Shown here one piece after another: positions 4,614-37,526 of a stretch of 38,227 nucleotides of DNA. A program made the translations under genes and the position numbers. Source of the stretch: Tricharina praecox (Eukaryota); contig NW_026250425.1 of NCBI RefSeq assembly GCF_024521635.1, positions 620,001 through 658,227 of the forward strand, given 5' to 3'. Each line of letters opens with the position of its first letter. The stretch's first letter is position 1. The notes under the pieces were generated by a model that saw only the letters and a program-made list of their open reading frames with translations, made no database searches and was not told where the DNA came from.

Positions 4614-6456
4614 ATGAAGGGTTTCAAGGAGCTCTCTGCCGTCGCGCTCTCGCTGCTTGCCTACACTGTCTCCGCTGAGGAGGCTGCTGCCGCTGCCGTC
4701 GATGAGGTGCCCTCGAATGTCCATGTTCTGAAGACTGATACCTTCGAGCCTTTCGTAAAAGAGAACCCGTTGGTGCTGGCTGAGTGTGCGTTGTCCCGTC
4801 TTCTCTGAGCTTCACATCTCGCCGTGTAGCGTAACTGACAGAAGTCAAATAGTCTACGCTCCCTGGTGCGGACACTGCAAAGCTTTAGCCCCCGAGTACG
4901 AGGATGCCGCCACAAAACTGAAGGAGAAGGGCATTCCTTTGGCCAAGATTGAGTGAGTGGTCTAGCTTTTCCGAAGCACTGGAACAAGGCGCTAACCATA
5001 CTTCCCCCCCCTAGCTGCACTGTCGAGACTGAGCTCTGTGAGAAGCAAGGTGTCCAGGGTTACCCCACCGTCAAGGTGTTCCGTGGCCCTGACAACGTCG
5101 CCCCCTACGGCGGCCAGCGCAAGTCGGATGCCATCGTCTCGTACATGATCAAGCAGTCCCTGCCTGCCGTCTCCATCCTTGACAAGGAGAGCCACGAGAC
5201 CTTCATCGCCGCCGATAATGTTGTCCTGGTTGCCTACTTCGGTGCCGACGATAAGGACACCAACGCCACCTACTCCCAGGTGGCTGAGTCCTTGAGGGAC
5301 AGCTACCTGTTCGGTGCCACTTCCGACGCCGCGTTGGCTAAGGCCGCCGGTGTCAAGACCCCCGCTCTCGTCCTGTACAAGAGCTTCGACGAGGGCAAGA
5401 CTGTGTACGATGGCAAGTTCGAGCTCGAGAAGGTTATGGAGTTCGCCAAGGTTGCCAGCACCCCGCTGGTCGGTGAGGTCGGTCCGGAGACGTACGCTGG
5501 GTACATGGACGCTGGCATCCCTCTCGCGTACATCTTCGTCGACAACGATGCCGACAAGGAGAAGTTCACCAAGGCAGCCAAGCCCCTCGCCGAGAAGTAC
5601 CGTGGCAAGATCAATTTCGCCACCATTGATGCTGCTGCTTTCGGCGCTCACGCCCAGAACCTGAACCTCGAGCAGAAGTGGCCCGCGTTCGCCATCCAGG
5701 AGACCGCCAAGAACCAGAAGTACCCCTTCGACCAGGACACCGAGATGACCGAGGCCGCCCTTGCCAAGTTCGTCGAGGACTTCTCCGCCGGCAACATCAA
5801 CCCCAGCATCAAGTCCGAGCCTGTGCCTGAGAAGCAGGAGGGCCCCGTCCACGTCATCGTTGCCAACAACTACGAGGACATCGTCATGGATGCCGAGAAG
5901 GACGTTCTCGTCGAGTTCTACGCTCCCTGGTGTGGACACTGCAAGAACCTCGCTCCTAAGTACGAGGAGCTCGGCAAGCTGTACTTTGACGACAAGGAGT
6001 TTGGCGCCAAGGTCATCATCGCCAAGGTTGATGCTACTGTGAGTTCACCGCACCTTGACCTGTCGTGGTGAAAGTTTACTGATTCGTGTCCAGGCCAACG
6101 ACGTTCCCATCGAGATCCAGGGCTTCCCCACCATCAAGCTCTTCCCTGCTGGCTCCAAGACTGCGATTGACTACACTGGAAGCCGCACCGTCGAGGACCT
6201 TGCCAACTTCGTCAAGGAGCACGGTACCCACAAGGTTGACGCCTACGTCGCTCCCCCCGCCGAGGTTGCCGCCGATGAGGCCGAGGAGGTTCTTGGCTCT
6301 GCCGCCGCTGCCGCCAGTAAGGTCTCAGAAAAGGCTGAGGAGAAGTCGGAGACCGCCACTGAAAAGGTGAAGGAGGCCACCGAGAAGGTGAAGGAGGCTG
6401 CCGCAGCGGCAAGCTCGGCTGTGGTCGGAGACGAGAGGATCCACAACGAGTTGTAA
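4614..6456 (+). CDS. PDI1: Protein disulfide isomerase (a-b-b'-a'), ~552 aa; exons 4614-4785, 4853-4952, 5015-6038, 6094-6456
   Basis: Signal peptide, two [10 protein letters not shown] active sites, GYPT/GFPT loops and C-terminal HNEL. Three GT..AG introns with CTRAC-like branch sites restore a single frame (1659 nt). Confidence 0.96.
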
Positions 6457-7014: not shown

Positions 7015-8729
7015 ATGTCCGGCAACCTCAAGCGCAAAGCACCCCCGACCCCCTCAAGTACAGCCAAAAAGACGCGTTCAATAGCCTCCTTCTTCAGGCC
7101 GGCAGCTTCACCCAGCAGCTCCAACTCCGGCTCCAGCACCTCGTCGACTAATGGCAGCGGCGACATCGCGACCTCCACGCTCCCAAAATTCAACAAAGCC
7201 ACCTGGCTCTCCACCCTCACGCCTGAGCAGCGTACCCTTCTCTCCCTCGAGCTCTCGAGCATCGGGCCGAGCTACCTCGGCCTGTTGGCCCCTCTCCTCA
7301 CAACCCCACAATTTCTCTCCCTCAAGGCGTTCCTCGCCTCGGAGCGCGGTCCCGTCTACCCACCCGCCCCACAGATCTACACGTGGACGCGCCTGTGCCC
7401 GCTCCCGTCCGTGCGCGTCGTCGTGCTGGGCCAGGACCCGTACCACGGTCCCGGACAGGCCATGGGGCTGAGCTTTTCCGTGTCCCCGCCGACCCCCGCG
7501 CCCCCGTCGCTGGGCAATATATACAAAGCGCTGGCGAGGGATTATCCCGATTTCCGGCCGCCGCCTGGGAGGGGCGGGGATTTGAGCCCCTGGGCGAGGA
7601 GGGGGGTGTTGCTGCTTAATGCAGCGCTCACGGTTAGGAGAGGCGAGGCGGCGTCGCATGCGGGGAAGGGGTGGGAGAAGATTACGGGCGCCGTACTAAG
7701 CCATCTCGCCAAGGGGAGAGGGTGTGTTTTTATGGTGTGGGGCGCGGACGCGCAGAAGAGGGTGAAGGAGGTGGGCATTGATGAGAATAAGCATTTGGTG
7801 CTGAGGAGTGTGCATCCGAGCCCGCTGAGTGCGCATAGGGGTTGGGTGAGTTACCTACCTACCGACGTGGAGCGAGGGGGCGTGGAGAGAGTGAGCGCTA
7901 ATAGTGGGTGTAGTTCGATTGCGGACACTTCAAGAAGGCGAATGAGTGGCTTGAGGCGCGCTACGGTGAGGCGGGACCGATCGATTGGAGTTTGCACGGG
8001 AGTACGCCGGTGGGGGTTAAGAGGGCGCCTGCGAAGGTGGAGGACAAGAAGGTGGAGGACAAGAAGGTGAAGGAGACGGAGAAGAAGGATGATGAGGATG
8101 AGTTCGGCTTTGATGACGAGGAGGAGGCGATGGTCGAGGCGGCTGTGGAGGCGGAGAACGCGGCGAAGGCGGCTGCTGAAGCGGAGAAGGAGGCGGTGGA
8201 GAAGGCGGCGAAGAAGGTGGCCGAGCAGACTAAAGCTGAGGAAGAGGAAGAGGACGAGGCGGTGGAGAAGGCGGCGAAGAAGGTGGCCGAGCAGACTAAA
8301 GCTGAGGAAGAGGAAGAGGACGAGGCGGTGGAGAAGGCGGCGAAGAAGGTGGCCGAGCAGACTAAAGCTGAGGAAGAGGAAGAGGACGAGGCGGTGGAGA
8401 AGGCGGCGAAGAAGGTGGCCGAGCAGACTAAAGCTGAGGAAGAGGAAGAGGACGAGGCGGTGGAGAAGGCGGCGAAGAAGGTGGCCGAGCAGACTAAAGC
8501 TGAGGAAGAGGAAGAGGACGAGGCGGTGGAGAAGGCGGCGAAGAAGGTGCTAGAACAGGTTGAATCTAAGGAAGAAGAGGAGGAGGAGGCTATCGAGGCT
8601 GTCGAGAAGGCAGTGGCGAAGGTGATAGCCCAAGCTAAAGTTGAGGAAGAGGAGGACTCAGAAGACGCTATGGCCATAGACATGGAGGAGGAGACGGCAG
8701 AGTCATCGGATGGCACGGAAAAGGCTTGA
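7015..8729 (+). CDS. UNG1: Uracil-DNA glycosylase (family 1) with a long acidic repeat C-terminal extension, ~548 aa; exons 7015-7845, 7914-8729
   Basis: Motifs GQDPYH, AMGLSFSV, PPSLGNIYK, GVLLLN and HPSPLS. Intron 7846-7913 (GTGAGT..GCTAAT..TAG) joins to FDCGHFKKANEWL...PIDW, which runs in frame into the 7992-8729 ORF. Confidence 0.9.
8190..8549 (+). repeat. Coding minisatellite: 66-bp unit x ~5.5, encoding EAVEKAAKKVAEQTKAEEEEED
   Basis: CCGAGCAGAC recurs at 8221, 8287, 8353, 8419 and 8485. Copies appear identical and are followed by a degenerate copy. Confidence 0.97.
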
Positions 8730-22287: not shown

Positions 22288-22696
22288 TGTAATCAAGTAC
22301 ACTGGGAAAGTACTATACCACTCTACCAAAAGGTATTTTGACGGGTGAACATGATCATCCCAATAGCTACTTAAGGCAAGGATTTCTGAACTGTGACAGT
22401 TTCCCCTCTCTAGGGGCTCACTCCAGAAAGCCTTCAAGTAGTTAACCCCCAATGAGTGATATTTCATGAAAACAATCGAAAACCATCATCCACTGTAAGC
22501 CATGCGATTCCTGAACAACCCAATAGCAGAGGAAAGTAACTGCTCGCAGTGGGAATTGAACTCATTTACTTGGCAGCCATCAAACTGTGATAAAGTACAC
22601 TGGAAAAGTACTATATCACTCGACCAAAAGGTATTTTGATAGCTGAAGGCCATGATCCCAGTAGCTATCTAAGGCCAGGATTTCTGTACTGTGACA
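22288..22696 (-). mobile_element. TRIM copy 1 (409 bp, diverged); LTRs 22586-22696 and 22288-22398
   Basis: Colinear with copies 2-5 but carries many substitutions. Flanks CACGC/AATTT do not match. Confidence 0.88.
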
Positions 22697-22698
22697 AA

Positions 22699-22760
22699 TT
22701 TGATGGCTGAAAGCCATCATCCCAGTATTTGATTAAGGCAAGGATTTCTGAACCGTGACA
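22699..22760 (-). mobile_element. Partial additional TRIM LTR (5' half)
   Basis: tttgatggctgaaagccatcatcccag...gatttctgaaccgtgaca matches the LTR 5' half. Confidence 0.75.
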
Positions 22761-22892: not shown

Positions 22893-23451
22893 TGTCACGG
22901 CCCGCGACGGAATGACGAAGGGAGGGTCGGCACAAGGATCGGGAGAGTTGGGGGGCAGTGCAAAGGCAGTGCACCGGCAGTGCAAGGATGAGCCGCAGAG
23001 GATTGGGGTCTCTGTGCAGGGAGCAGGGATAGCGCAGTAATGAGACGCAGGAGATTGGGGCTGTGTGCAGGAAGCAGGGGTAGTGCGGCTGCGCAGGGTA
23101 TGAGTCACGGAAGTGGGGTACTGGCAAGGTGGATTTCTCTGGGTCTGGCACACACCCACGGTCATTGTCAGGTTGCTGGAAGAAGTGGAGGATTTCCTAT
23201 ATAAACGGGCCGTTGCCCCTCTGTATTTAGTTCTTCACGCAACAACTTGTTAATTCAAACACTGTTACCTCTGTCCTTACCTCGGCTGCCGTCTGCGCCG
23301 TAGTGCTTGTCCCTGCCTCTGTTCTCAGTTGCCGTCTGCACTGAGCCCTGCCTCACCTTGTCCCCTGAACCCATCTTGCCTCTGCCGAACCCAGAAACCG
23401 ATCCCCAGCCCGACTTCGCTACCTGGAGCCTTGCCCGACCGTGCCGTTACA
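22893..23451 (+). mobile_element. Family B gypsy 5' LTR (559 bp)
   Basis: TGTCAC...GTTACA termini and TATATAAA at 23198. Homologous to the LTRs at 27067, 27582 and 37531. Followed by a PBS-like site and the gag ATG. Confidence 0.88.
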
Positions 23452-23490
23452 CTTTGTTGCGCCCCCTATCTCGCCACCTAGCGAACTACT

Positions 23491-24474
23491 ATGGCCACCA
23501 ACACTCAGGTACCCAAGGTCCCCCAGCAGGACGAAGTACCAGTGGCGCCTCCCTTCTACCGAGAAATTCCCGCCGCCATCTATTGTCACAGTTCAGAAAT
23601 CCTGGCCTTAAGTGGCTACTGGGATGATGGCCATCAGCCATCAAAATACCTTTTGGTCGAGTGGTATAGTACTTTCCCAGTGTACTTTATTACAGTTTGA
23701 TGGCTGCAAAGGTCATGAGTTCAATTCCCACTGTGAGCAGTTACATTCCTCTGCTGCAGCGTTGTTCAGGAATTGCATGGCTTACAGTGAGTGACGGTTC
23801 ATGATTCTTATCATGAATTATCACTCATTGGGGGTTAACTACTTGAAGGCTTCCTGGAGTAAGCCCCTAAAGAGGGGATACTGTCACAGTTCAGAAATCC
23901 TGGCCTTAAGTAGCTACTGGGATGATGGCCATCAGCCATCAAAATACCTTTTGGTCGAGTGGTATAGTACTTTCCCAGTGTACTTTATTACATCTATGAA
24001 CAACTCGAAATCATCGTCAATCATGATGCACCCGCCGATGATGCAACCTTGATGGGGTTGTACAACGAATTCAGAATCCTCGCCCGCGCAATCACCCTAT
24101 CCCCAATAGCCGTACCGGCCTGGCGATTCGACGACCTTGAAGAACAACTTGCTGACGCCCGCCGCATCGCCAACCGCCTCGCCACCGTCGAAATCCTACC
24201 TCAAAGCCGCGCTGAGCGTGTCCTAGAACCAGCCATGTTTGACGGAACGCGAGAAGCTGGAAGAGTTCGTTGCGCAACTTCGACTCAAGCTGTACAGCTA
24301 CCCAGCCCGTTTCCCAACTCCAGCACTCCGAATGGCCTATGCCTTCAACTGCTTGGAAGGCTGCGCCCAAGCCCAGATCCTGCCTTACATCGAGAATCAC
24401 AACAACACCCTCACCGGCGCTGATGCAATCATCACACTCCTGAACAACGCATTTGGTGACCCTGACCCAGCGGC
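23491..24474 (+). pseudogene. Family B gag relic, interrupted by TRIM copy 2, frameshifted and truncated by an LTR
   Basis: Removing the TRIM plus one TSD gives MATNT...PAAIY|EQLEII...EPAMFDGTRE. After a frameshift it continues KLEEFVAQLRLKL...AYAFNCLEGCAQ...LNNAFGDPD, which is retrotransposon gag-like. Confidence 0.82.
23584..23992 (+). mobile_element. TRIM copy 2 (409 bp); LTRs 23584-23694 and 23882-23992; TSD TCTAT
   Basis: 111-bp TG..CA direct repeats with 1 difference, PPT AAAGAGGGGATAC before the 3' LTR, and a perfect 5-bp TSD (23579-23583/23993-23997). No protein-like ORF. Confidence 0.95.
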
Positions 24475-25211: not shown

Positions 25212-26643
25212 TTATGGGCAGCTTAAAGAAAGGTCGGCGAGTGCTCTACCTTGTGAAATGGCTCAACTACCCCAAACGGCGGGACTGGACGCACCAGCCA
25301 TCCGGCAACTTCTCAGTCGGCCGTCGGGAAAAGCTACGCGAGTCCAATTGCAAAAGTCCCGATGCGCCAAGGGACTACCGGCTCACCGATGAGTAAGTGT
25401 TTTTTTCCCATGTGGTTTTCTTGAACTCGGGCAGGTAGTAGGATGAAGGGGATGAAGGACTTCATCCACAGTTATCAGGTTGGGATAAAGGCGAGGACTT
25501 GGGTGCTTCGGGCTGAAGCCTCGTGGAAGGGGAGATGGTGTGACACCCCGATAGGTATCGGAGGCCACGACGGTCGCAAGACATGTGATTAGATAGTTCG
25601 GGTGATTACATTAGAGTTGTGAGCCGAACGGATAGTTAGAAGCGATCCGTCACAGTTCAGAAATCCTGGCCTTAAGTAGCTACTGGGATAATGGCTTTTA
25701 GCCATCAAAATACTTGTTGGTCAAGTGGTACAGTATTTTCCCAGTGTACTTCATTACAGTCTGATGACTGCCAAGGTCATGAGTTTGATTCCCACTGCGT
25801 GCAGTTACTTTCTTATGCTGCAGTGTTGTTCAGGAATTGCATGGCTTACAGTGAGTGATGGTTTATAATTCTTATCATGCAATATCACTAATTGGGGGTG
25901 AACTACTTGAAGACTTCCTGGAGTAAGCCCCTAAAGAGGGGATGCTGTCACAGTTCAGAAATCCTTGCCCTAAGTAGCTACTGGGATGATGGCCTTCAGC
26001 CATTAAAATACCTTTTGGTCAAGTGGTATAGCGCTTTCCCAGTGTACTTTATTACAATGGAGGACAAGTTAGGAAAGAGAAGAGCAAACAGATTCCAGAG
26101 TCTAGACAGTGATCAGAGATGCGGGTGAGCGGGGTAACAATCCAGAGGGCTTTGGGATCACCGATCATAGGACCCCGCAGTAGAAACTCCGGTCAAGGGA
26201 AAAACTGTTATGACAAGAGAATCAAACATCGACCTATGGGGGCAGAGAACCCCGAGCGATGAACTCTGCCGGCGCATAAGGAAAATAGTTGCCTGGGAAC
26301 TCCGATATATCTTGGGCGCGTGGTGTTAACCACCTGCCTAGTCGAGAAGACTATCCGAAGAGAGCTGACGACGGCTCAAGGCTAGGCCGTGGGGAACTCC
26401 GAAGCAAAGGAAGCAACGGGGCCGTATCAGGCCGCACTCTAGAGGAATCACATGCTGAGGATCGGAACGGCTATAAGTGTCAAACCGAGCGGGCAACCGA
26501 ACTGAACGCAATCATAGCACCGAACAACCATTGAAGAAACACCCTTAAGATTATTCCGTTGTGAATTATCGAAATCCCTGACTTTTATTCTATACTCGAT
26601 AATACCATTAATTCCGACGTCCTGAACTCGTTCCAGTCTCACA
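25212..26643 (+). mobile_element. Family A 3' remnant: chromodomain tail, PPT and 3' LTR (25539-26643, split by TRIM copy 3)
   Basis: MGSLKKGRRVLYLVKWLNYP...DYRLTDE matches the pol end of the intact element. PPT GGAAGGGGAGATGG. LTR is homologous to 28383-29071. Confidence 0.88.
25648..26056 (+). mobile_element. TRIM copy 3 (409 bp, diverged), inserted in a family A LTR
   Basis: Colinear with copy 2. Host LTR resumes after it (AGCGATC|..AGGACAAG). TSD is not preserved. Confidence 0.88.
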
Positions 26644-26840
26644 TTTGCTCACTCCTGCCCAACTTGTCTCTATGCTATGACTATTTATTCTTGTGTTTCA
26701 ATCACTTCTGAATAAACCACTCTTGCTGTGATTTCGCGAGCGTCGATCGGGGTGTCACACAAAGTTGATTTGTCAGGTTCTAGCACACGCCCATAGTCAT
26801 AGTCAGGTTGCTCGAAGATGTGGAGAATTTTCTATATACT

Positions 26841-27581
26841 TGGACAACCAAGAAGAATGGGAGGTTGAAGAGGTCCTCGACAGCCGGAACCTCAGGGGCA
26901 AACTCCAGTACCTGGTGAAATGGAGAGGCTACGCGGCACCAACATGGGAACCAGAGGAGAACCTTACCGAGGTACAAGCTGTGAACGATTTCCATCGACG
27001 ATACCCCATGCAGCCTGGACCAGTCAAACTTGCTCTGGTGGGAACTCGAGCCTTAGGAGGGACTACTGTCACGGCTCGCGACGGAACGACGAAGGGAGGG
27101 TCGGCACAAGGATCGGGAGAGTTGGGGGGCAGTGCAAAGGCAGTGCACCGGCAGTGCAAGGATGAGTCGCAGAGGATTGGAGGCTGTGTGCAGGGAGCAG
27201 GGATAGTGCAGTAATGAGCCGCAGGGGATTGGGGCTGTGTGCAGGAAGCAGGGGTAGTGTGGCTACACAGGGTATGAGTCACGGAAGCAGGGTACTGGCA
27301 AGGTGGATTTCTCAGGGTCTGGCACACGCCCACGGTGATTGCCAGGTTGCGGGAAGAAGTGGAGGATTTCCTATATAAACGGGCCGTTGCCCCTCTCTAT
27401 TTAGTTCTTCACGCAACAACTTGTTGATTCCACAACTGTTACCTATGTCCTTGCCTGGGCTGCCATCTACGCCGTAGTTCCTGTCTCCTCCCTTGTTTCT
27501 CAGTTACCGTCTACAGTGTGTTCCGTCTTGTTCTGTCTTCCCGACTCCTCTTGCCCAAGGCCAACCCAGTTCGTGTCCACC
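26841..27581 (+). mobile_element. Family B 3' remnant: chromodomain, PPT and LTR (from 27067), cut at 27581
   Basis: [38 protein letters not shown] chromodomain; AGGAGGGACTAC|TGTCAC junction. Confidence 0.85.
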
Positions 27582-28382: not shown

Positions 28383-29071
28383 TGTGAGACTGGGACGGGT
28401 TCGTGTCGTCGGAGTCTATGGTAATATCGAGGATAGAATAAAAGTCAGGGATTTCGATAATTCACAACGGAATAATCTTAAGGGTGTTTGTTCGATGGTT
28501 TGTTCGGTGCGATGATTGTAGTTTGTTCGGTTGCACGCTCGGTTCGACTTATAGTCGTCCCGATCCTCAGCACGTGATTCCTCTAGAGTGCGGCCTAACG
28601 TAGCTCCGTTGCTTCCTTTGCATCGGAGTTCCGCGGCCTAGCCTTGAGTCGTCGTCAGCTCTCTTCGGATAGTCTTCTCGACTAGGCAGGTGGTAAACAC
28701 CACGCGCCCAAGATAGATCGGAGTTCCCGAGCAATTATCTCCCTCATGCGCCGGCAGAGTTCTTCGCTCGAAGTTGTCTGCCCCCATCGGTCGATGTTCG
28801 ATTCTCTCGTCATAACAGTTTTTTCCTGGATCGGAGTTCCTACTGCGGGGCCCTATGATCGGAGATCTCAAAGTCCTCTGGACTGTTATCCCGATCTCCC
28901 GCATCTCCGATCACTGTCTAGACTCTGGAATCCGTTTGCTCCCTCCTTCCTATCTTGTCCTTGATCGCTTCCAACTATCCTTTCGGCTCGCAACTCTATT
29001 CTAATCACCCGAACTATCTGATCACATCTCTTGCGACCGTCGTGACCTCCGATACCTATCGGGGTGTCACA
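28383..29071 (-). repeat. Family A 3' LTR
   Basis: TG..CA termini; 3 differences from 35061-35749 found by eye. Confidence 0.95.
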
Positions 29072-29212
29072 CCATCTCCCCTCCCACGAGGCTTCGGCCC
29101 GAAGCACCCAAGTCCTCGCCTTTATCCTAACTTGATAACTGTGGATGAAGTCCTCCATCCCCTTCATCCTACTACCTGCCCGAGTTCGAGAAAACCACAT
29201 GGGAAAAAACTC

Positions 29213-32200
29213 TTACTCATCTGTGAGCCGGTAGTCCCTCGGCGCATCGGGATTTTTGCGATGAAACTCGCGTAGCTTTTCCCGACCGCCTACTGAGAAG
29301 TTGTCGAATGGCTCGTTCGTCCAGTCCCGTCGTTCGGGGTAGTTGAGCCATTTGACGAGGTAGAGCACTCGTCGACCTTTCTTAGAGCTGCCCATAACCT
29401 CATCGACGTCGTATTCTTCGTTGCCTTCCACATCATCGGCCTCTCGTAAGATTTGAGAGGGATCCGGTGGTGCTCGGGTGCCGGCTCGGAACGGTTCAAC
29501 GAGCGAGACGTGAAAGACATTATGAATCTTCCACTTCCTTGGCAGAGTGAGCTTGACAGCGAGCGGCGATACGATCTTCTCGATTTGAAAGGGACCATGG
29601 TTCTTGTGGTCCAACTTCCGCGAGGGTCGGCGGGTTTGAATGTTCCGCCCATTGAGCATTACCAAGTCTCCTACTTGATAAGCCGGTGCCTCCTGACGAT
29701 GTTGATCTGCATACTTGCGCATTCGTTCGCGCGTTCGTTCGAGGGTCTTGATGTTTTCCTCGTGGACTGTATGCATCCAGTGAGCGTAGACCTTGCTGGC
29801 GGGGTTGAGAGAATTTGCCGCAGCAGGGTTTGTCGCCGACGGGTGGTATCCGAAATTCGCATAGAAGGGCGACATTCCGGTTGCCGATGTAACCGAGTTG
29901 TTGTAGGCAAACTCAGCCATCGGTAGGAGATTCACCCAATCGTTCTGTTCGTAGTTGACGAAGGAGCGGAGGTATGCTTCGATCGTCTGGTTGAGGCGTT
30001 CGGTTTGTCCATCCGTCTGTGGGTGGAACGCTGTTGACATCCGGGGCTTAATGCCTAGCAGCCGGATGAATTCTTTCCATGTACCCGAGGTAAACCGTGA
30101 GTCTCGGTCCGACACTATGTCTGCTGGTAATCCGTGAAAGCGCCATATCTCGCGGGCAAAGATCTTCGCGAGATCCTCGGCTATCTTTCCATCCTTAGGT
30201 AGGGGGATGAAATGCGCCATCTTGGTGAAGCGGTCGACGACCACCCATAGCTGGTCGCATCCGTTGGATTCCGGTAGGTCGGTAATGAAGTCCATGGCTA
30301 TTGATTGCCATGGGGTGTATGGTAACTCGAGGGGATTGAGTAGTCCATACGGCTGGTGCCTTGTTGCTTTGTCCTTCTGACACTGCGCGCAACTCCGGAC
30401 GAAGTCTATAATCTGCTCGTCCATCTTTGGCCACCAGAAATTGCGTCGGATAAGTTCGATAGTCTTGTCCTGGCCCATATGCCCCGCGACTTTCGTATCG
30501 TGTTCCGACTCGAGGATGTGTCTGACGAGTTCCTTATCGTCTGGTACCCATAGCCTTTCTTTCCTATACAGGCACCCCTCTTCCATCCTCAAAATCCTGG
30601 CCTTTCGGCCCATCCTGCCGGAGTCCCTACTCTCGGCGGCCAGTTCCCAGGCCTTTCGGCCTTCCGACTCAGTGTCCTTCTGAGCCGCGTCCCCGTTCGT
30701 GTCCTTGATGCTGCTCAGAGCCTCCTGATACCCAGCATCTTTCTTTCCTGCCTTCCTGACCCAACCCAGAAATTCTTCATTCCACTTTGGCACGGGGATT
30801 GATTGTAGCCGAGTTGACGAAACCAGGAACACGGTGCTTTCGCCTCCGGTGCTGATTGATGAAACTCTCGAATCGTCGCCTGCAAAGTGTGATTTATGCA
30901 GGATCGTCGTAATCGGCTGATCTTCACCCCCCCCTTTTTCAGGGCGGTACTCCGGGCGCCTGGATAATGCGTCAGGCTTGCCGTTCTGGCTGCCGGGCCG
31001 GTAGTAGATTTTGAAGTCGATGCCAGCGAGTTCTTGTGCCCATCTCGCCTGCCGTCGATTGAGTACTTTCGTGGTTGTGAAGTACTCAAGGTTCTGGTGG
31101 TCGCTGTACACCTGGATCTGGTGTTTTGCTCCCTCAAGGTATTGCCGCCAGCGTTTGAAAGAGTCTACTATCGCGAGTAGTTCCTTATCGTGAATCTCAA
31201 AGTTGATTTCGGCTGGGGTAAACTTTCTTGAGTGGAACGCAACTGGGTGTAACTTCCCATCCTCTGTCCTTTGAGACAGGACCGCGCCCAACGCGAAGTC
31301 CGAAGCGTCGGATTCCACCATGACAGGTAATTCTGGGTTGAAGTGCCCGAGAATCGGTGCCGTGGTGAACCTAGACTTCAGCTCCTCGAAGGCCAGTTCC
31401 ATCTCCGCTGTCCATCTCCAATCCTTCCCTTTTTCTTTTGTGCTCTCGGTCAAGGGTCTCGTGATCTTTGAGAAATCCTTGATGAAGCGCCTGTAAAAAT
31501 TGGCGAACCCAAGAAAGGCTTGTACTTCCTTCAGGGACCGCGGCGCCTCCCATGAGAGCACAGATTCCACCTTGTCCTTAGCCATCTCAATTCCATCTTG
31601 GGATATCACGTATCCTAGGAACTCGACTCTCCCTGTCGACCAGACACACTTCTCTGGTGAGATTGCCAACTTATTTTCTTCCAACCTCTTTAGTACCTCG
31701 ATGACTATCTTGTCATGCTCCTCGTGCGTCTTCGCATAGATGAGGAGGTCATCGATGTACGCGACCAGTCCCAGGTCCAACATATCCCGAAATATGTGGT
31801 TAATCATGTCCTGAAACGTCGCTGGAGCGTTGGTCAGCCCAAACGGCATGACCAAAAACTCAAATAGTCCGTATCGACAGCGGAAAGCCGTCTTCCACTC
31901 GTCACCTTCCTTGATGCGGATAAGGTGATAGCCATTCTTCAGATCAATCTTGGTGAAGACTTTCGCACCCCTGACTCGGTCTTGCAACTCTGCCATGATC
32001 GGGAGTGGGTAGCGATTGGCTACGGTAATCTTGTTGATACCGCGATAGTCGACACACAATCGGAGACCCCTGCCGTGCGCCTTTGGTACAAATAATATCG
32101 GCGCCCCGGCTGGTGATTTAGATCTTCGAATCTTGCCTGTCTGGAGCATCTCCTTGAGCCACTCTCTGAGGGCCTCAAGTTCTTTCTCTGACAGCGCATA

Positions 32201-33022
32201 GATAGGACCCCATGGAGGAGTCTCTCCTTCCTTGAGATCGATTGCGTGGTCGTAGGACTTGTGGTCGGGAAGCTTATCAGCTGCTTCCTTGCTCATGATG
32301 TTGGCATATCGTCTGAACTTCTCCGGAAGCAGATTTATGGGTGGATCTGATTCCGGGCCAGCTGAGACGTATCCGATAATGCAAGCCTCCGAATTGTGAA
32401 CGACAGACGTGTCAAGTTCCATCGGAAAGCTGGTTGCTTGTTGCAAGGTGCATTGTTCCTTGCATCGGGTGCTGGTGAAGCGAATTTTCTGTGCTTCATT
32501 CTCCCACAACCCTGTCGGTTCATGCTTAGCCATCCACCAATACGGGAGGTAGGCATCGCAGTCGTCCAAGGGAGCCACTTCGAAGGTTTCGTTGGTGTAG
32601 TGCCTCCGGTGTTGAAGGAGCATCGGCATTGTATAATATTCCCCGGCTCCTTCCACTATGGTTCCGTGGAAGTCCTTGATTTCCACCGGCTTAGGTCTTT
32701 GAATGAGAGGCAACCCAAGTTCTCGTGCAAGGCTTCGTTTGATGATCGGAATGGCACATCCTGTGTCAAGGAGTACTCGGATCCGTCGTCGCTTGTGCTC
32801 AGACCAGAGGAGCATCATTTCTATGATTGGTCGTGGTCCGCTGACAGGTTTTGGGGGCTCACACCCTGAGGCGCTCGGCGCGGTTGGACTCGTAGGAATA
32901 GGTTGGTCCGTTCGTCTTCGCTTATCTCTGGATTCGCTGTCGATATCCTGAGGCCGTGGTCTCTTCGTTCCGCAAACATATACACTTGGCCGTCCAGTCT
33001 GCGGAGTGCTGGGGCCGCTCAA
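29213..33022 (-). CDS. pol: Pol polyprotein: protease, RT, RNase H, integrase, chromodomain
   Basis: [92 protein letters not shown]. Domain order is gypsy-type. Confidence 0.96.
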   Translation of the reverse strand: MSGPSTPQTGRPSVYVCGTKRPRPQDIDSESRDKRRRTDQPIPTSPTAPSASGCEPPKPVSGPRPIIEMMLLWSEHKRRRIRVLLDTGCAIPIIKRSLARELGLPLIQRPKPVEIKDFHGTIVEGAGEYYTMPMLLQHRRHYTNETFEVAPLDDCDAYLPYWWMAKHEPTGLWENEAQKIRFTSTRCKEQCTLQQATSFPMELDTSVVHNSEACIIGYVSAGPESDPPINLLPEKFRRYANIMSKEAADKLPDHKSYDHAIDLKEGETPPWGPIYALSEKELEALREWLKEMLQTGKIRRSKSPAGAPILFVPKAHGRGLRLCVDYRGINKITVANRYPLPIMAELQDRVRGAKVFTKIDLKNGYHLIRIKEGDEWKTAFRCRYGLFEFLVMPFGLTNAPATFQDMINHIFRDMLDLGLVAYIDDLLIYAKTHEEHDKIVIEVLKRLEENKLAISPEKCVWSTGRVEFLGYVISQDGIEMAKDKVESVLSWEAPRSLKEVQAFLGFANFYRRFIKDFSKITRPLTESTKEKGKDWRWTAEMELAFEELKSRFTTAPILGHFNPELPVMVESDASDFALGAVLSQRTEDGKLHPVAFHSRKFTPAEINFEIHDKELLAIVDSFKRWRQYLEGAKHQIQVYSDHQNLEYFTTTKVLNRRQARWAQELAGIDFKIYYRPGSQNGKPDALSRRPEYRPEKGGGEDQPITTILHKSHFAGDDSRVSSISTGGESTVFLVSSTRLQSIPVPKWNEEFLGWVRKAGKKDAGYQEALSSIKDTNGDAAQKDTESEGRKAWELAAESRDSGRMGRKARILRMEEGCLYRKERLWVPDDKELVRHILESEHDTKVAGHMGQDKTIELIRRNFWWPKMDEQIIDFVRSCAQCQKDKATRHQPYGLLNPLELPYTPWQSIAMDFITDLPESNGCDQLWVVVDRFTKMAHFIPLPKDGKIAEDLAKIFAREIWRFHGLPADIVSDRDSRFTSGTWKEFIRLLGIKPRMSTAFHPQTDGQTERLNQTIEAYLRSFVNYEQNDWVNLLPMAEFAYNNSVTSATGMSPFYANFGYHPSATNPAAANSLNPASKVYAHWMHTVHEENIKTLERTRERMRKYADQHRQEAPAYQVGDLVMLNGRNIQTRRPSRKLDHKNHGPFQIEKIVSPLAVKLTLPRKWKIHNVFHVSLVEPFRAGTRAPPDPSQILREADDVEGNEEYDVDEVMGSSKKGRRVLYLVKWLNYPERRDWTNEPFDNFSVGGREKLREFHRKNPDAPRDYRLTDE

Positions 33023-35022
33023 AAATCCTCCGGCTCACTCTCATTCCTTTCCCAGAATGGAGGGGCCTCCGTCATTGCTTCATCCTCCACCACAACCGCC
33101 GCAGCCTTGTGTTGCTTGGACCTCGGTCGAGTGGGTTCGGCATCCTGGGTGTCCCGCTTTCTCTTTGTCACGGATGACACCTTTGGACTCTCGGGGAGTT
33201 CGGTACCCGCGACTGTTTTTCTGGCGTAGCATTGGAAGGTTCGGTGGCCGTCTCGTCCGCAACGCCAACAGTCGCACTTGGATCCTTTGTGGGCATCGAT
33301 CTCCTTCTGGGGAACCCCTACCAGAGCCTCCTTTGCTCCTGCGTAGATGTCCCCTTCCCTTGTCCTTCCCTTCCTGACTCCTGTTGCTTCCTTGGCCTTT
33401 CGGCCCTCCGGGGACTCCCCGCTTTCCTTGCGGCCCCCGGGGTCTCTTCCCTTTCCTTGGCCCTGCCGGCCGTTGCCAGGTCCCTTCCGGTCGCCGCCGG
33501 AACCCTGGCTACCCGATCCCCCTTTCCTCATTGCCCTTGCCTTTTTCAGCGCGTCCCGTCGTTCCACATGGTTGCCAGCTCTGAGCACCGTTTCCAGGAA
33601 GTCTTCATCGTCTTCGTAGGGTTCGGTGTGCTGGTTGAAGCACATATCCACGATGTCGGTGGTCATGGCCTGGTTGACTATGTCTTGTAGCGGTTCGCCG
33701 GTGGCGCGAGCGATCATGTTGAGCGATCGGAAGGAGGTCATGTAAGCCTGAATGTCTCCTTTGTATTCGAGGGCCCACATCCTTCTTAATGCGTTCGCTC
33801 CTTCCTGCGTGTCGCGGTACGCCTCCTTGAGTGCCTCTTGGTACGCCTGCCAGGTATCTTCCAAGTGTAGCTGTCTCAGGCTTTTTCGACGGGCCTGATG
33901 CCATTCTGCCGCTGTCCCTTCCAGTCGGGATCCCACCCACGCTATCTTCTGCTGCTCGTTTGTCTCTGGGTGGAACTCAAGATATTCTTCAACTGAGTCC
34001 CACCATGGACGGAAGGCTGTTCTTTGCTTGCCATCGAACGGCTTGGGCTCTTTCATTTTAAGCTTGATGGCCCTCGGGTTCGATGCGGAGACGGCAGCAG
34101 CGATGATCCGAGCGAAGCGACTCTCTTCGTCTTCGTCGTCTTCTCTTGGTAGCGGAGCGTGTCGGTGACGGGGCGGCGAACGACGCGGCAAGGGGATGGA
34201 ATCGTCATCATCCGATGGTTCCTCATCCGAGGGATCACCTCCAAGGTTAGTCACCGGACGTCTTGGGGGTGGAGGAGGAGGGGACATTCCTGCACCTGCC
34301 GGAGTTTCCCTGGTTGCTGACCTTTCTGCCCGCGATCCTCCTCTTGGGGTAGTGTTTACCCACTCCGGGGCCTTTTCCTTCGCCTTCCCTGTCCTTACCT
34401 CTACAGCCTTCAATTTTTTCTCTGCTCGAGCGATTTTTTCCTTGATTCGCTGTTGCTCCTTGTAGAGGTATTCTGCCTTCTCTTCCTGTTTCCCTGCCCA
34501 AATTTCCACGTTGCGGTTGTACACCGCTTGCTCCCTGCGTTGTTCGACTTGCGCCGTTTCGAGGAACACGATGGCGTCTTGTAGCCGAGCGTTTGCGACG
34601 CTTTGCAACTCGCGGTTGTCTTCGTCTTTCTGGTTACGTTCTCGAATGACTGCCCATACGTCGCTGCTCAGGGCGTGCGTCGCGTTCGCTACTGTTGACA
34701 GCTCGGTTCGAAGCCATTCTGTATTCATTTCGGCATTGTGAGCGTAGAGGTTGTACACATACTTGACCCCATCGCAGAGTTGTTCGTAGTTCCTTCTGAT
34801 TTCCTGCATTCGGGAGTCCTCTTCGTTGAACTTCTGATCGCATGCTTGGTAAAGCTGGCGCAGGTCTCTTTGTGCCGTTTGGTATTGGTGGTTCATCAGC
34901 CTGAGCCAGGCTGCCGGGTTTCGTACTTCGACGGTTTCGGATGCTTGCGGGATGCTAACGAGCGCATTGCTCAGGGTCTGAGGAAGTTCGAGGCGGAGCA
35001 TGTCGAGGTTTGAGGAGGACAT
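33019..35022 (-). CDS. gag: Gag polyprotein (667 aa)
   Basis: Starts just after the 5' LTR/PBS. Coiled-coil N-terminus, EPKPFDGK..W..LEGTAAEW capsid-like region and CCHC knuckle CWRCGRDGHRTFQC. Confidence 0.92.
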   Translation of the reverse strand: MSSSNLDMLRLELPQTLSNALVSIPQASETVEVRNPAAWLRLMNHQYQTAQRDLRQLYQACDQKFNEEDSRMQEIRRNYEQLCDGVKYVYNLYAHNAEMNTEWLRTELSTVANATHALSSDVWAVIRERNQKDEDNRELQSVANARLQDAIVFLETAQVEQRREQAVYNRNVEIWAGKQEEKAEYLYKEQQRIKEKIARAEKKLKAVEVRTGKAKEKAPEWVNTTPRGGSRAERSATRETPAGAGMSPPPPPPRRPVTNLGGDPSDEEPSDDDDSIPLPRRSPPRHRHAPLPREDDEDEESRFARIIAAAVSASNPRAIKLKMKEPKPFDGKQRTAFRPWWDSVEEYLEFHPETNEQQKIAWVGSRLEGTAAEWHQARRKSLRQLHLEDTWQAYQEALKEAYRDTQEGANALRRMWALEYKGDIQAYMTSFRSLNMIARATGEPLQDIVNQAMTTDIVDMCFNQHTEPYEDDEDFLETVLRAGNHVERRDALKKARAMRKGGSGSQGSGGDRKGPGNGRQGQGKGRDPGGRKESGESPEGRKAKEATGVRKGRTREGDIYAGAKEALVGVPQKEIDAHKGSKCDCWRCGRDGHRTFQCYARKTVAGTELPESPKVSSVTKRKRDTQDAEPTRPRSKQHKAAAVVVEDEAMTEAPPFWERNESEPEDF

Positions 35023-35060
35023 ATCGATAGAAATCGGTGACTGTAACCTTAAGATTATAG

Positions 35061-35749
35061 TGTGAGACTGGGACGGGTTCGTGTCGTCGGAGTCTATGGT
35101 AATATCGAGGATAGAATAAAAGTCAGGGATTTCGATAATTCACAACGGAATAATCTTAAGGGTGTTTGTTCGATGGTTTGTTCGGTGCGATGATTGTAGT
35201 TTGTTCGGTTGCACGCTCGGTTCGACTTATAGTCGTCCCGATCCTCAGCACGTGATTCCTCTAGAGTGCGGCCTAACGTAGCTCCGTTGCTTCCTTTGCA
35301 TCGGAGTTCCGCGGCCTAGCCTTGAGTCGTCGTCAGCTCTCTTCGGATAGTCTTCTCGACTAGGCAGGTGGTAAACACCACGCGCCCAAGATAGATCGGA
35401 GTTCCCGAGCAATTATCTCCCTCATGCGCCGGCAGAGTTCTTCGCTCGAAGTTGTCTGCCCCCATCGGTCGATGTTCGATTCTCTCGTCATAACAGTTTT
35501 TTCCTGGATCGGAGTTCCTACTGCGGGGCCCTATGATCGGAGATCTCAAAGTCCTCTGGACTGTTATCCCGATCTCCCGCATCTCCGATCACTGTCTAGA
35601 CTCTGGAATCCGTTTGCTCCCTCCTTCCTATCTTGTCTTTGATCGCTTCGAACTATCCTTTCGGCTCGCAACTCTATTCTAATCACCCGAACTATCTAAT
35701 CACATCTCTTGCGACCGTCGTGACCTCCGATACCTATCGGGGTGTCACA
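35061..35749 (-). repeat. Family A 5' LTR
   Basis: Near-identical to 28383-29071. Confidence 0.95.
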
Positions 35750-37096
35750 TCTCCTCTCCTCAAAGGCGCGGATGATTGCAAGGAGTTCTTTGTCATAGAT
35801 CTCGTAGTTGCATTCTGCCGGGGAGTGTTTCTTGAAATAGAATGCCACTGGGTGCAGGATTCCCTCGTCGTCGTGCTGAGATAGGACCCCGGCAGAGACG
35901 TAGTCGGAGGCGTCAGTTTCCACTACTATCTGCCGATCGTAGTCGAAGTGCCGGAGGATCGGGGCCGGCGTGAATGCTGTTTTTAGTTCGTCGAATGCTT
36001 TCTGCTGTTCCGGCCCCCACACGAAGGGAACATACTTTCCATCCTCCTTCTTGGTCAATGCTGTCAATGGGGATACCACCTTGGAATAGTCTTGGATGAA
36101 TTGCCGGTAGAAGTTCGCAAATCCCAGAAAGCATTGCACATCGGTGACGGTACTAGGCTCCTCCCATTCCAGTATGCAGGAGACTTTCGCTGGGTCCATC
36201 TTGATCCCGTTTGTTGTAATGATCAGTCCCAAATACTTGACTTCCGTCTGGTGGAAATGACCCTGACATGTTTCCGGTGTTCATCTAAGGATCCGCTGTA
36301 AATGAAGACGTCATCGATGAATGCGGTACAGAAGCCGTCGAGGAACAGGCGTAGTGTAATAAAGTACACTGGGAAAGTACTATACCACTCGACCAAAAGG
36401 TATTTTGATGGCTGATCGCCATCATCTCAGTAGCTACTTAAGGCCAGGATTTCTGAACTGTGACAGTATCCCCTCTTTAGGGGCTTACTCCAGGAAGCCT
36501 TCAAGTAGTTAACCCCCAATGAGTGATAATTCATGATAAGAATCATGAACCGTCACTCACTGTAAGCCATGCAATTCCTGAACAACGCTGCAGCAGAGGA
36601 ATGTAACTGCTCGCAGTGGGAATTGAACTCATGACCTTTGCAGCCATCAAACTGTAATAAAGTACACTGGGAAAGTACTATACCACTCGACCAAAAGGTA
36701 TTTTGATGGCTGATCGCCATCATCTCAGTAGCTACTTAAGGCCAGGATTTCTGAACTGTGACACGTAGCACATCGTTGATCAGAGCTTGGAAGTCGGCAG
36801 GGGCGTTGGTGAGACCGAAGGGCATGACGAGGGATTTGAAGAGCCCATAGCGTGTCCGGAAGGCAGTTTTCTACTCTGCTCCTTCCGCCATCCGCACAAG
36901 GTTGTAGGCACCGCGGATATCCAGGGTGGTGAAGTATTTTGCCCCGGATAGCCGCATCAGAGTTTTTTGGAGAAGTGGGAGTGGGTACCTGTTCTTAATT
37001 GTTCCTTCTTTCAGGCCCCTGTAATCCACACACAGGCGTAGGGAGCCATCTGATTTCTTGACAAACAGAATTGGCAATGCTGCTGGAGAGGAAGAG
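35750..37096 (-). pseudogene. Degenerate gypsy pol (RT-RNase H), probably family B, interrupted by TRIM copy 4
   Basis: [23 protein letters not shown] (W to stop)..[27 protein letters not shown]..(deletion)..[20 protein letters not shown]. Confidence 0.88.
36355..36763 (-). mobile_element. TRIM copy 4 (409 bp); LTRs 36653-36763 and 36355-36465; TSD CGTAG
   Basis: The two LTRs are identical and the TSD is perfect (36350-36354/36764-36768). Removing it restores the RT frame. Confidence 0.96.
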
Positions 37097-37117: not shown

Positions 37118-37526
37118 TGTCACAGTTCAGAAATCCTGGCCATAAGTAGCTACTGGGATGATGGCCATCAGCCATCAAAATACCTTTTGGTCGAGTGGTA
37201 TAGTAATTTCCCAGTGTACTTTATTACAGTTTGATGGCTGCAAAGGTCATGAGTTCAATTCCCACTATGAGCAGTTACATTCCTCTGCTGCAGCGTTGTT
37301 CAGGAATTGCATGGCTTACAGTGAGTGACGGTTCATGATTCTTATCATGAATTATCACTCATTGGGGGTTAACTACTTGAAGGCTTCCTGGAGTAAGCCC
37401 CTAAAGAGGGGATACTGTCACAGTTCAGAAATCCCGGCCTTAAGTAGCTACTGAGATGATGGCGATCAGCCATCAAAATACCTTTTGGTCGAGTGGTATA
37501 GTACTTTCCCAGTGTACTTTATTACA
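37118..37526 (+). mobile_element. TRIM copy 5 (409 bp); LTRs 37118-37228 and 37416-37526
   Basis: Nearly identical to copies 2 and 4. Flanks GTATC/GTAGT do not match. Confidence 0.93.

Follow-up and report, generated by a model that had tools for sequence, protein, structure and literature searches.

How can a retrotransposon of 409 bp, with no coding capacity of its own, be copied, and what is the role of the tRNA-like motifs that it carries? The question is raised by a TRIM, a non-coding mini LTR element, located at 23584–23992 on the forward strand of the window, i.e. the whole 38,227-nucleotide stretch of Tricharina praecox DNA analysed here (contig NW_026250425.1, positions 620,001–658,227; assembly GCF_024521635.1). 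Its host is an ascomycete belonging to the Pezizomycetes. Non-autonomous LTR elements must retain all cis signals that their helper requires. The answer that we regard as reasonably probable is that the TRIM is a Tf1-type self-priming element, related to a neighbouring family of LTR elements (family X) and probably mobilised by chromoviruses like X.

The TRIM is genuine, non-coding and recently active. An earlier note had described a 409-bp element in which LTRs of 111 bp enclose a 187-bp interior with a polypurine tract (PPT), present in five copies in the window, and this description holds; LTR and interior lengths are the same in all five copies. The 5′ LTR (TGTCACAG...ATTACA; 23584–23694) and the 3′ LTR (23882–23992) are identical at 110 of 111 positions. 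Between them lies the interior (23695–23881), which ends in the PPT AAAGAGGGGA (23869–23878) and a TAC spacer, a junction like that of element X. The target-site duplication (TSD) TCTAT is found on both sides (23579–23583 and 23993–23997). LTR termini are TG..CA in nine of the ten TRIM LTRs, with one 5′ LTR beginning CG. The interior also contains a long hairpin (23785–23830; inverted repeat I1, 21-nt arms, 81% complementary); the interior fold has a z-score of −4.98, and comparison of the hairpin with Rfam gave weak matches to miRNA models only. A similarity comparison of interior and LTR with the rest of the window (word size 7) returned matches only at E ≥ 0.35. In its size class, TG..CA LTRs, PPT and 5-bp TSD, as well as in the occurrence of solo LTRs and nesting in other repeats, the element resembles the classical TRIMs of plants and animals.

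The five copies differ in age. The youngest (36355–36763, reverse strand) has identical LTRs (111/111) and the TSD CTACG. The copy at 37118–37526 (forward; LTRs 106/111) has no TSD, and its left and right flanks derive from different elements; it is probably an inter-copy recombinant. Two copies are old. One (25648–26056, forward; LTRs 97/111, TSD degenerate) is inserted within an LTR of a chromovirus, chromovirus 1, for which a paralogous site without the interruption exists at about 28961–28963; the other (22288–22696, reverse; LTRs 93/111) lacks a TSD. The 5-bp duplications ascribed to the family are thus perfect in two of the five copies (TCTAT, CTACG) and degenerate or absent in the remaining three. 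Mobility is also visible outside the window, in four public runs that were compared as assembled contigs, in which molecule ends are not visible. One contig from run X2 represents an empty site; it joins 23576 to 23991 and omits 414 bases, i.e. 409 + 5, with the five letters at the join fitting either side. Solo LTRs with unrelated flanks, bearing the TSD GCATC, occur in contigs from runs X2 and X12.

The principal clue to replication lies just inside the 5′ LTR. One base past the LTR, the putative primer-binding site (PBS) TTTGATGGCTG (23696–23706, forward) is the 11-nt complement of CAGCCATCAAA, LTR nt 52–62 (23635–23645, forward; inverted repeat I3), which we regard as a putative self-primer. 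The complement is perfect (11/11) in three of the five copies, those with LTRs identical at 106–111 of 111 positions, and is gone from both old copies (LTRs 93 and 97/111). A complement of at least 11 nt arose in only 6 of 20,000 LTR shuffles. Classical TRIMs have a tRNA-complementary PBS, in contrast to the self-complementary one found here. The alternative that here, too, a cellular tRNA or a piece of one (3′ end, anticodon loop or half-tRNA) serves as primer, as in fungal elements of the Helenus and Copia groups, with the LTR match a coincidence, is very improbable. The rarity of an 11/11 complement in shuffles and its retention in precisely the young copies both argue against coincidence, and both neighbouring chromoviruses share the same design with other sequences. 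Moreover, TGG does not stand at the start of the PBS but 6 nt in, so that the PBS is not the complement of a tRNA 3′ end; reading it from this internal TGG breaks A58 and C61, which are invariant tRNA positions. What speaks for a tRNA primer is precedent, as most fungal families of the TRIM group Helenus use the anticodon loop of a tRNA, according to the available part of PMC10886601.

Folding predictions are compatible with self-priming. In the minimum-energy structure of the putative 111-nt RNA 5′ region, nt 1–11 pair with the PBS, and the sequence between the two forms a U5 hairpin (predicted at 23661–23693, forward); the centroid structure is the same in this respect. The z-score of this fold is −2.73, and a fold as good is reached by 2 of 200 shuffles. 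When the RNA is extended to 247 nt, the pairing of nt 1–11 with the PBS is kept in the prediction (z −5.07). The TRIM copies are too similar to one another for a covariation test.

Priming by the 5′ end of the mRNA itself is established for Tf1 and has been inferred for Tj1 and other Tf1/sushi elements (PMC4600332, PMC6317226, as far as the available parts of these papers go). In the Tf1/sushi chromoviruses Tf1, Tf2 and Tj1, as in the TRIM with its 11 nt, the PBS beside the 5′ LTR can pair with a stretch of the element's own LTR (PMC4600332, available part). The likeness extends to a U5 hairpin predicted between primer and PBS, and to the lack of a tRNA-type PBS. Tf1 uses its first 11 nt, and the TRIM would do likewise. 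On this model, transcription would begin inside the 5′ LTR at about 23635, the presumptive 5′ end of the genomic RNA, and the first 11 nucleotides of the transcript, CAGCCAUCAAA, would fold back on the PBS, as their complementarity and the predicted fold suggest. By analogy with Tf1, the helper RNase H would release a 3′ end by cutting after nt 11, and this end would prime the minus strand. The PPT at 23869–23878 would prime the plus strand, and the helper integrase would insert the cDNA; the 5-bp duplication is observed.

This scheme is not free of difficulties. A start at 23635 leaves a putative U3 of just 51 nt with no recognisable TATA box to set it, which counts against the self-priming reading. 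The TRIM also differs from Tf1/sushi elements in being a non-coding element of 409 bp with 111-bp LTRs, which must borrow reverse transcriptase (RT), RNase H and integrase. Its U3 lacks a TATA box, its start is placed from sequence, and it carries tRNA-like motifs; we know of no such motifs in Tf1-type elements.

Which element might supply the proteins? Two chromoviruses lie close by. Chromovirus 1 (28383–35749, reverse) is full-length, with open gag and pol ORFs, LTRs identical at 686 of 689 positions, and RT, RNase H, integrase, SH3_Tf2-1 and Chromo domains. Starting 2 nt past its LTR, it has a 12-nt LTR/PBS self-complement (35161–35150 versus 35058–35047); a complement of at least 12 nt occurred in 1 of 3000 shuffles, and the fold has a z-score of −3.32. 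Family X is represented by a 5′ LTR (TGTCACGG...GTTACA; 22893–23451, the feature extending to 23461; forward) and by the 3′ end of an element (26732–27512, forward), in which a chromodomain ORF (Chromo, E 1.3e-12) runs into an X LTR from 27067. As this ORF adjoins the X LTR, X is a chromovirus. It also shows self-complementarity, albeit over 8 nt: TTGTTGCG at 23454–23461, 2 nt past the LTR, is complementary to CGCAACAA at 23238–23245 within it. The LTR copy begins 33 nt after the end of TATATAAA (23198–23205, forward) and thus sits just downstream of the TATA box. This 49-nt segment is kept in all four X LTRs with 0–1 mismatch. Matches of at least 8 nt anywhere in the first 25 nt turn up in about 12% of shuffles of the 689-nt chromovirus 1 LTR; the weight of the X complement is in its position, not its length. 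LTR/PBS self-complementarity is common to the TRIM and both chromoviruses of the window, in each case with a different sequence.

Of the two, it is X that resembles the TRIM in its LTR termini and junctions. At the PPT/LTR start, the TRIM reads GAGGGGATAC followed by TGTCACAG, and X reads GAGGGACTAC followed by TGTCACGG; at the LTR end and PBS, TTACA-G-TTTGATGG in the TRIM corresponds to TTACA-C-TTTGTTGC in X. When the two 8-bp duplexes are aligned, three differences in the PBS are each compensated in the LTR primer, a covariation that is not independent of how the primers were found. The TRIM is probably related to family X and probably uses X-like chromoviruses as helper, judging from the sequences. 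More generally, a chromovirus of the Tf1/sushi type is the most likely helper, with family X the best candidate in the window, an assignment that draws on junction similarities of about 20 nt and on co-location.

A second set of signals overlaps with this priming apparatus. According to the earlier note, the LTR holds an A-box-like and the interior a B-box-like motif of the tRNA type. Both are where they were said to be: TGGTCGAGTGG at 23654–23664, matching the A-box pattern in nine of the ten TRIM LTRs, and AGTTCAATTCC at 23718–23728, 24 nt into the interior, both on the forward strand. The distance of 64 nt from start to start is likewise correct and leaves 53 nt between the boxes, which is within the workable range for type-2 Pol III units. 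The B-box-like motif follows the 5′ LTR only, as claimed, and is part of a stretch resembling the 3′ half of a tRNA (variable loop, T-arm and acceptor; 23708–23739, forward). The stretch between the two boxes, which had been overlooked, is the PBS complementary to the TRIM's own LTR. Across the window, the A-box pattern has 12 matches against 1.16 expected, nine of them in the ten TRIM LTRs, and the B-box pattern has six against 2.92 expected, four of them in the five interiors. As all copies belong to one family, these matches amount to one independent co-occurrence. A chance origin of the pair is unlikely, and the motifs are probably the remains of a tRNA-derived module that now forms part of structured U5/leader RNA. 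The pair is, however, less probable by chance than a relic would require, and so may be functional, perhaps as a promoter.

The earlier note went further and proposed a split type-2 (tRNA/SINE-like) Pol III promoter, made up of an LTR-borne A box and an interior B box, so that only intact elements would be transcribed. We consider this reading rather unlikely, though it is compatible with self-priming. It has several points in its favour. The motifs share a strand, follow each other in the correct order and are 53 nt apart, and a pair so ordered would occur by chance in an element of 409 bp with a probability of about 1e-5 to 1e-4 by our estimate. The putative U3, at just 51 nt and without a TATA box, fits an internal promoter as well. 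The self-primer begins 19 nt before the A box, about where Pol III starts on tRNA genes. The T-arm-like stretch and a D-loop motif are, in addition, shared with a Helenus LTR (see below).

Dedicated tRNA searches give a less favourable picture. A tRNA scan, of the kind suggested by the earlier note, gives no tRNA in the TRIM, either with ARAGORN at default or 90% thresholds or with the Rfam tRNA model at E up to 10 over the 801 nt and 111 nt scanned. At 85%, ARAGORN yields three matches in five copies compared with three in 200 shuffles, a marginal resemblance. At 80%, a tRNA-like call from the A box to the acceptor-like end ([67,155] or [71,157]) is obtained in four of five copies, but shuffles also score at this threshold (27 in 200), the relaxed call has a poor cloverleaf, and an acceptor stem is lacking. 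Nor are the boxes conserved better than the rest of the element, an outcome that the earlier note had named as grounds for refuting its proposal: non-consensus cells number 4/110 in the A box versus 48/1110 in the LTR, and 2/60 in the B box versus 45/935 in the interior, although five copies evolving neutrally after insertion are a weak basis for such a comparison and give it almost no power.

Termination poses a further problem. A run of five or more T is indeed absent from the copy at 23584–23992, which has T4 only, at element positions 68 and 366. The single T4 run of the LTR (nt 68–71; 23651–23654, forward) runs one base into the A-box-like motif from upstream and would occupy +17 to +20 of the expected transcript. 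Downstream of the B box, the three young copies have no T run of at least four, T4 being found at LTR nt 68–71 only. The unit would thus have either a premature stop or no terminator. There is also another possible reason for the B-box sequence, as this stretch pairs with downstream interior sequence (23768–23774) in the predicted 247-nt fold.

Contigs from two metatranscriptome libraries cover parts of the TRIM, but neither the polymerase nor the RNA ends can be read from them, and the depth of contigs in flanks versus TRIM gives no basis for ranking expression. Contigs from runs X2 and X12 start near 23659–23661, one of them joined to adapter-like letters. These starts were considered as RNA ends and instead ascribed to branching of the assembly graph about 30 nt before the LTR end. 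A 327-nt contig from run X2 corresponds to one 298-nt period of LTR plus interior with 29 nt added, as a cycle in the graph gives.

The closest known counterparts in terms of the tRNA-like motifs are found in Helenus (TRIMp3; Kojima 2024, PMC10886601, available part), which also comprises short fungal TRIMs with 5-bp TSDs and A- and B-box-like motifs. By eye, the T-arm region of the Helenus-8_PSt LTR is nearly identical to the B-box interior stretch of the TRIM (21 of 23 nt), and the D-loop 9-mer AGTGGTATA is common to both. The earlier note placed the tRNA-like sequence of Helenus inside the LTR, and this is right; the whole tRNA-like unit including both boxes lies there, which is how Helenus is defined (PMC10886601, available part). 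The TRIM is arranged differently. Its LTR has an A-box-like motif only, with the LTR/interior boundary and the PBS separating the boxes, and it is not called by tRNA finders (ARAGORN default, Rfam). Its PBS matches its own LTR, whereas the PBS of fungal Helenus elements is complementary to a tRNA, at the anticodon loop or the 3′ end, and a match to the LTR is not reported for Helenus in section 3.6 of PMC10886601. The helper is of the Copia type for Helenus and likely a Gypsy-type chromovirus for the TRIM, whose host, moreover, is an ascomycete. Table S1 of the same paper, in its available part, has no 409-bp family, and four TRIM motifs are absent from the available supplement text, in which line-wrapped FASTA could hide a split motif.

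The TRIM might also descend from a Helenus-type ancestor with the whole tRNA-like unit in its LTR. Acquisition of a new self-primer and PBS within that unit would have moved the U5/interior boundary upstream and left the B-box half behind as a relic that may or may not retain some promoter activity. In favour of such a shift, the position at which the primer anneals sets the end of U5 in LTR elements, and tRNA-like pieces do flank the PBS on both sides. Directly after the tRNA-like stretch, GTTACA (23740–23745) repeats the hexamer that ends the X LTR, but a match of six letters would arise by chance in about 5% of stretches of 187 nt. A relative with a longer LTR was not found. Metagenomes scanned for an 18-nt pattern of the LTR start, with N at one position, gave 84 loci but no further TRIM copies, these loci being chance matches because BLAST with the TRIM gives no match longer than 21 nt; a scan of viral contigs with an interior pattern gave 0 matches. 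Among fungi, Helenus is reported from Basidiomycota only in Table 1 of PMC10886601 (available part). Overall, this origin is quite improbable.

Both sets of signals could also operate together, with a Pol III promoter split by the LTR boundary (A box in U5, B box past the PBS) and Tf1-type priming in one element, a combination that is so far unreported and that we consider unlikely. It would have an attractive consequence: the Pol III start, expected about 19 nt ahead of the A box, would be the first base of the 11-nt self-primer, and the promoter itself would fix the exact RNA 5′ end that self-priming requires. Replication-competent RNA would then be made from intact elements only, not from solo or 3′ LTRs. 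Such an element could possibly have originated from a Helenus-type ancestor whose priming site shifted into its tRNA-like unit, which shortened the LTR. If the boxes are active at all, the Pol III-driven TRIM class (TRIMp3) would extend to Ascomycota and would gain a new architecture, one that interleaves promoter, LTR boundary and primer site. What the proposal shares with Cassandra and Ajax is the notion of a TRIM that has a Pol III promoter inside it; theirs is derived from 5S rRNA and lies wholly within the LTR; among Rfam matches at E up to 10, no 5S rRNA match is present in the TRIM.

Tf1-type self-priming, the reading favoured here, has consequences of its own. A TRIM with its own primer would not need packaging of a host tRNA and would require only RT/RNase H and integrase from its helper, which would explain how an element of 409 bp can ride on Tf1/sushi-type chromoviruses. 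The literature searched contains no description of a self-priming TRIM; a paper on bivalve TRIMs raises self-priming merely as a possibility (PMC6934838, available part). With the TRIM and two chromoviruses predicted to be self-priming side by side, the window offers a compact system for studying helper specificity.

One further fragment of the family is a truncated TRIM LTR at 22699–22760 (reverse), comprising LTR nt 1 to about 62–64. Helper-independent insertion via primer homology (PMC11042837, available part) was considered as its origin and rejected, as the flanks are unlike the PPT end or the PBS. Nesting in an older LTR was rejected as well, unless a deletion followed, as the other half is absent downstream. 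The fragment stops at the 3′ end of the self-primer and is 2 nt from the old copy at 22288–22696.

The 409-bp element at 23584–23992 (+) is a complete miniature LTR retrotransposon, and by every structural criterion it belongs to the non-coding TRIM class. Its two 111-bp LTRs (23584–23694 and 23882–23992) run from TGTCACAG to ATTACA and are identical at 110 of 111 positions; they enclose a 187-bp interior (23695–23881) with the polypurine tract (PPT) AAAGAGGGGA at 23869–23878, 3 nt upstream of the 3' LTR. All these features lie on the forward strand, and the 5-bp target-site duplication (TSD) TCTAT flanks both ends (23579–23583 and 23993–23997). Repeat finding, self-BLAST and alignment recover five full 409-bp copies in the window; the LTR and interior lengths, the PPT and the copy number proposed in an earlier note are all borne out. 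The 5-bp TSDs claimed there are perfect in two of the five copies (TCTAT, CTACG), degenerate in the copy at 25648 and absent from that at 22288. LTR pairs are identical at 111, 110, 106, 97 and 93 of 111 positions, which indicates a family active over some time and also recently. The copy at 25648 sits inside the LTR of a neighbouring chromovirus, of which an uninterrupted paralogue represents the empty site. The copy at 37118 is probably a recombinant, because its two flanks derive from different elements and its LTRs are of two subtypes.

Independent support for insertion comes from assembled contigs of two public sequencing runs, X2 and X12. An X2 contig joins 23576 to 23991 and skips 414 bases (409 + 5), with five letters that fit either side. 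Contigs of both runs carry a solo TRIM LTR between unrelated flanks, and the duplication GCATC is perfect in X12 and matches at four of five positions in X2. The identical solo-LTR insertion, flanks included, recurs in runs that carry the labels organism A and organism B (contigs over 23584–23695); it either predates their split or the labels stand for close relatives.

The primer-binding site (PBS) matches the element itself. One base past the 5' LTR, TTTGATGGCTG (23696–23706) is perfectly reverse-complementary to LTR nt 52–62, CAGCCATCAAA (23635–23645, +), a putative self-primer of 11 nt; that of Tf1 is reportedly 11 nt long. A complement of at least 11 nt to the first 25 interior bases arises in 6 of 20,000 LTR shuffles. 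It is perfect in the three copies with LTRs identical at 106–111 of 111 positions, and eroded in the two old ones. When the RNA is folded from 23635, its first 11 nt are predicted to pair with the PBS, with a U5 hairpin in between (z −2.73 for 111 nt, −5.07 for 247 nt), and this pairing is kept in both MFE and centroid structures. The PBS does not begin with TGG, and the tRNA 3' end implied by its internal TGG would presumably break the invariant A58 and C61. Judged from sequence, the layout is that of self-primed reverse transcription. In this process the mRNA of an element base-pairs through its 5' end with the PBS, and an RNase H cut yields the primer; sections of PMC4600332 and PMC6317226 treat it as established in Tf1, and as inferred in Tj1 and further members of the Tf1/sushi group. 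The TRIM RNA, with a 5' end from about 23635, would likewise pair with its own PBS and prime. A truncated TRIM LTR at 22699–22760 (−), two nucleotides (TT) away from the full copy 22288–22696, comprises LTR nt 1 to about 62–64 and breaks off where the putative self-primer has its 3' end. Its flanks fit neither nested insertion nor primer-homology insertion, and it may have arisen through aberrant reverse transcription or recombination.

The same LTR/PBS self-complement design can be read in both neighbouring chromoviruses. Chromovirus 1, a full-length element (28383–35749, −), has open gag (33019–35139, −) and pol (29213–33034, −) frames with RT, RNase H, integrase, SH3_Tf2-1 and Chromo domains. 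It looks young, since its LTRs are identical at 686 of 689 positions, and it lacks a TSD, its flanking 5-mers being different (GGAGA vs CCGAG). A 12-nt LTR stretch (35161–35150) is complementary to 35058–35047, 2 nt past the LTR; a complement of at least 12 nt is seen in 1 of 3000 shuffles, and the predicted fold has z −3.32. The second family, X, is known from a reference LTR at 22893–23451 (+) and further self-BLAST copies at 27067–27512, 28031–27582 and 37947–37529 (coordinates in reading direction). It too is a chromovirus: a Chromo-domain ORF (26732–27214, E 1.3e-12) extends into its LTR at 27067. Downstream of its 5' LTR there is a weak gag-like match to DUF4939, which at 21.9 bits falls short of the cut-off of 29. 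Its LTR contains the TATA box TATATAAA (23198–23205, +), and 33 nt after this begins the 8-mer CGCAACAA, the complement of which, TTGTTGCG, lies 2 nt past the LTR. All four X LTRs conserve the 49-nt TATA-to-primer segment, with 0–1 mismatch.

Sequence comparison indicates that TRIM and X have their functional junctions in common. From PPT to LTR start, the TRIM reads GAGGGGATAC then TGTCACAG, and X reads GAGGGACTAC then TGTCACGG; from LTR end to PBS, the respective sequences are TTACA-G-TTTGATGG and TTACA-C-TTTGTTGC. Chromovirus 1 is less like the TRIM than X is at both junctions. Within the aligned 8-bp duplex the PBSs of TRIM and X differ at three positions (A/T, G/C, C/G), and the LTR primers differ complementarily at exactly these three; such compensated differences support LTR/PBS pairing, though not independently of how the primers were found. 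On the strength of the shared junctions, the TRIM is taken to be related to an X-like chromovirus and is probably its passenger. All five copies lie inside or beside other retroelements, a placement that would fit chromodomain-guided integration. On the best-supported account, this is a self-priming TRIM that is kin to Tf1/sushi-type chromoviruses and is probably mobilised by them; the priming step would be alike, but unlike those elements the TRIM is non-coding.

Among other retroelement sequences, an RT/RNase H fragment (35696–36280, −) is 50% identical (88/177) to chromovirus 1 pol and seems to belong to a different Gypsy family, possibly X; its element has been interrupted by chromovirus 1 and by the TRIM copy at 36355, which inserted there. 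Summed contig depth in X2, a run only guessed to be RNA, is ~17,000–158,000 over 23400–23583 and 23994–24200, and ~20–180 over the TRIM. Both flanks come from an X element (its leader and gag region), and X-family sequence is extremely abundant in this run.

The earlier note had proposed a different role for the region around the PBS, namely a Pol III promoter split between an A box in the LTR and a B box in the interior, from which only intact elements would be transcribed by Pol III. The A-box-like TGGTCGAGTGG (23654–23664, +) and B-box-like AGTTCAATTCC (23718–23728, +) are indeed found by pattern scan where claimed, and the PBS falls between them. The A-box pattern has 12 matches in the window (1.16 expected), nine of them within the ten LTRs of the TRIM copies; for the B-box pattern there are six (2.92 expected; 3 of 100 shuffles reach six), four of them in the five TRIM interiors. 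Since the copies belong to one family, this amounts to one independent co-occurrence. An ordered same-strand pair with this spacing in a 409-bp element is expected at ~1e-5 to 1e-4, as estimated from pattern counts, and pure chance is thus unlikely. The pair itself speaks for the promoter reading, and so does the lack of a TATA box in the 51-nt putative U3. A further point in favour is that the self-primer starts 19 nt ahead of the A box, near the usual position of Pol III starts on tRNA genes.

Other evidence speaks against the split promoter. Default ARAGORN finds no tRNA in the window, and the Rfam covariance models (E up to 10) give neither a tRNA nor a 5S match in 801 nt or 111 nt around the boxes. 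ARAGORN is also blank at 90% thresholds; it returns marginal calls of three matches in the five copies at 85% (three in 200 shuffles) and five at 80% (27 in 200 shuffles), and this marginal tRNA-like call counts in favour of the promoter. The relaxed match spans element nt 67–155, from A box to acceptor-like end, and folds into a cloverleaf whose stems are weak and which lacks a true acceptor helix. Conservation is no higher in the boxes than around them, contrary to what the promoter reading had foreseen, with 4/110 non-consensus cells for the A box against 48/1110 for the LTR and 2/60 for the B box against 45/935 for the interior, although five copies give little power. Young copies have no terminator-like sequence 3' of the B box; their only run of at least four T is a T4 at LTR nt 68–71, which runs into the first base of the A box and would be met within ~20 nt by a Pol III transcript begun upstream. 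The B-box stretch is predicted to pair with 23768–23774 in a strongly structured interior (z −4.98), which suggests an alternative, structural role. Two libraries recorded as metatranscriptomic each yield one contig at least 99% identical to the element (23678–23920 and 23779–23929); ends, strand and polymerase are not shown by these, and DNA carry-over is possible.

A tRNA-derived origin of the box-bearing pieces is nevertheless plausible. A comparison by eye of the interior stretch AAGGTCATGAGTTCAATTCCCAC with the T-arm region of the Helenus-8_PSt LTR shows mismatches at 2 of 23 positions, and the D-loop 9-mer AGTGGTATA is common to both LTRs (PMC10886601 supplement). Alongside self-priming, the TRIM would carry tRNA-like relics with possible promoter activity. 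It falls outside Helenus (TRIMp3, published TRIMs with a tRNA-like LTR) because its tRNA-like unit is not inside the LTR, where Helenus has both boxes, and its PBS matches its own LTR instead of a tRNA. PMC10886601 reports no complementarity between LTR tRNA-like sequence and PBS in Helenus, and its Table 1 places fungal Helenus only in Basidiomycota. An exact match to a described family, which the earlier note took as the end of novelty, is likewise missing there: no 409-bp family appears in Table S1, and four TRIM motifs are absent from the searched part of the supplement text, where motifs split by FASTA line wrapping would escape. The TRIM is not Cassandra- or Ajax-like, given the lack of a 5S match. 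The TRIMp3 literature searched gave the Helenus paper as the only relevant match, and the portions searched on self-priming with TRIM or non-autonomous elements report no self-priming TRIM; a bivalve TRIM paper, in the part available, only raises the possibility (PMC6934838).

Two further interior features deserve mention. GTTACA at 23740–23745, directly after the tRNA-like stretch, repeats the terminal hexamer of the X LTR; it may be what remains of an earlier and longer LTR, or a chance match (~5%). A long, near-perfect hairpin at 23785–23830 gives weak miRNA-precursor-model matches (18.8 and 16.3 bits, far below gathering scores) and could serve in packaging or dimerisation, or give rise to small RNA. 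The host fungus belongs to the Pezizomycetes; an ORF for a disulfide isomerase (4953–6071) is 98% identical to a Tricharina praecox protein and 83% to one of Sphaerosporella brunnea. A tandem array at 8046–8683, with a 66-bp period and ~9–10 units, lies within long open frames of both strands.
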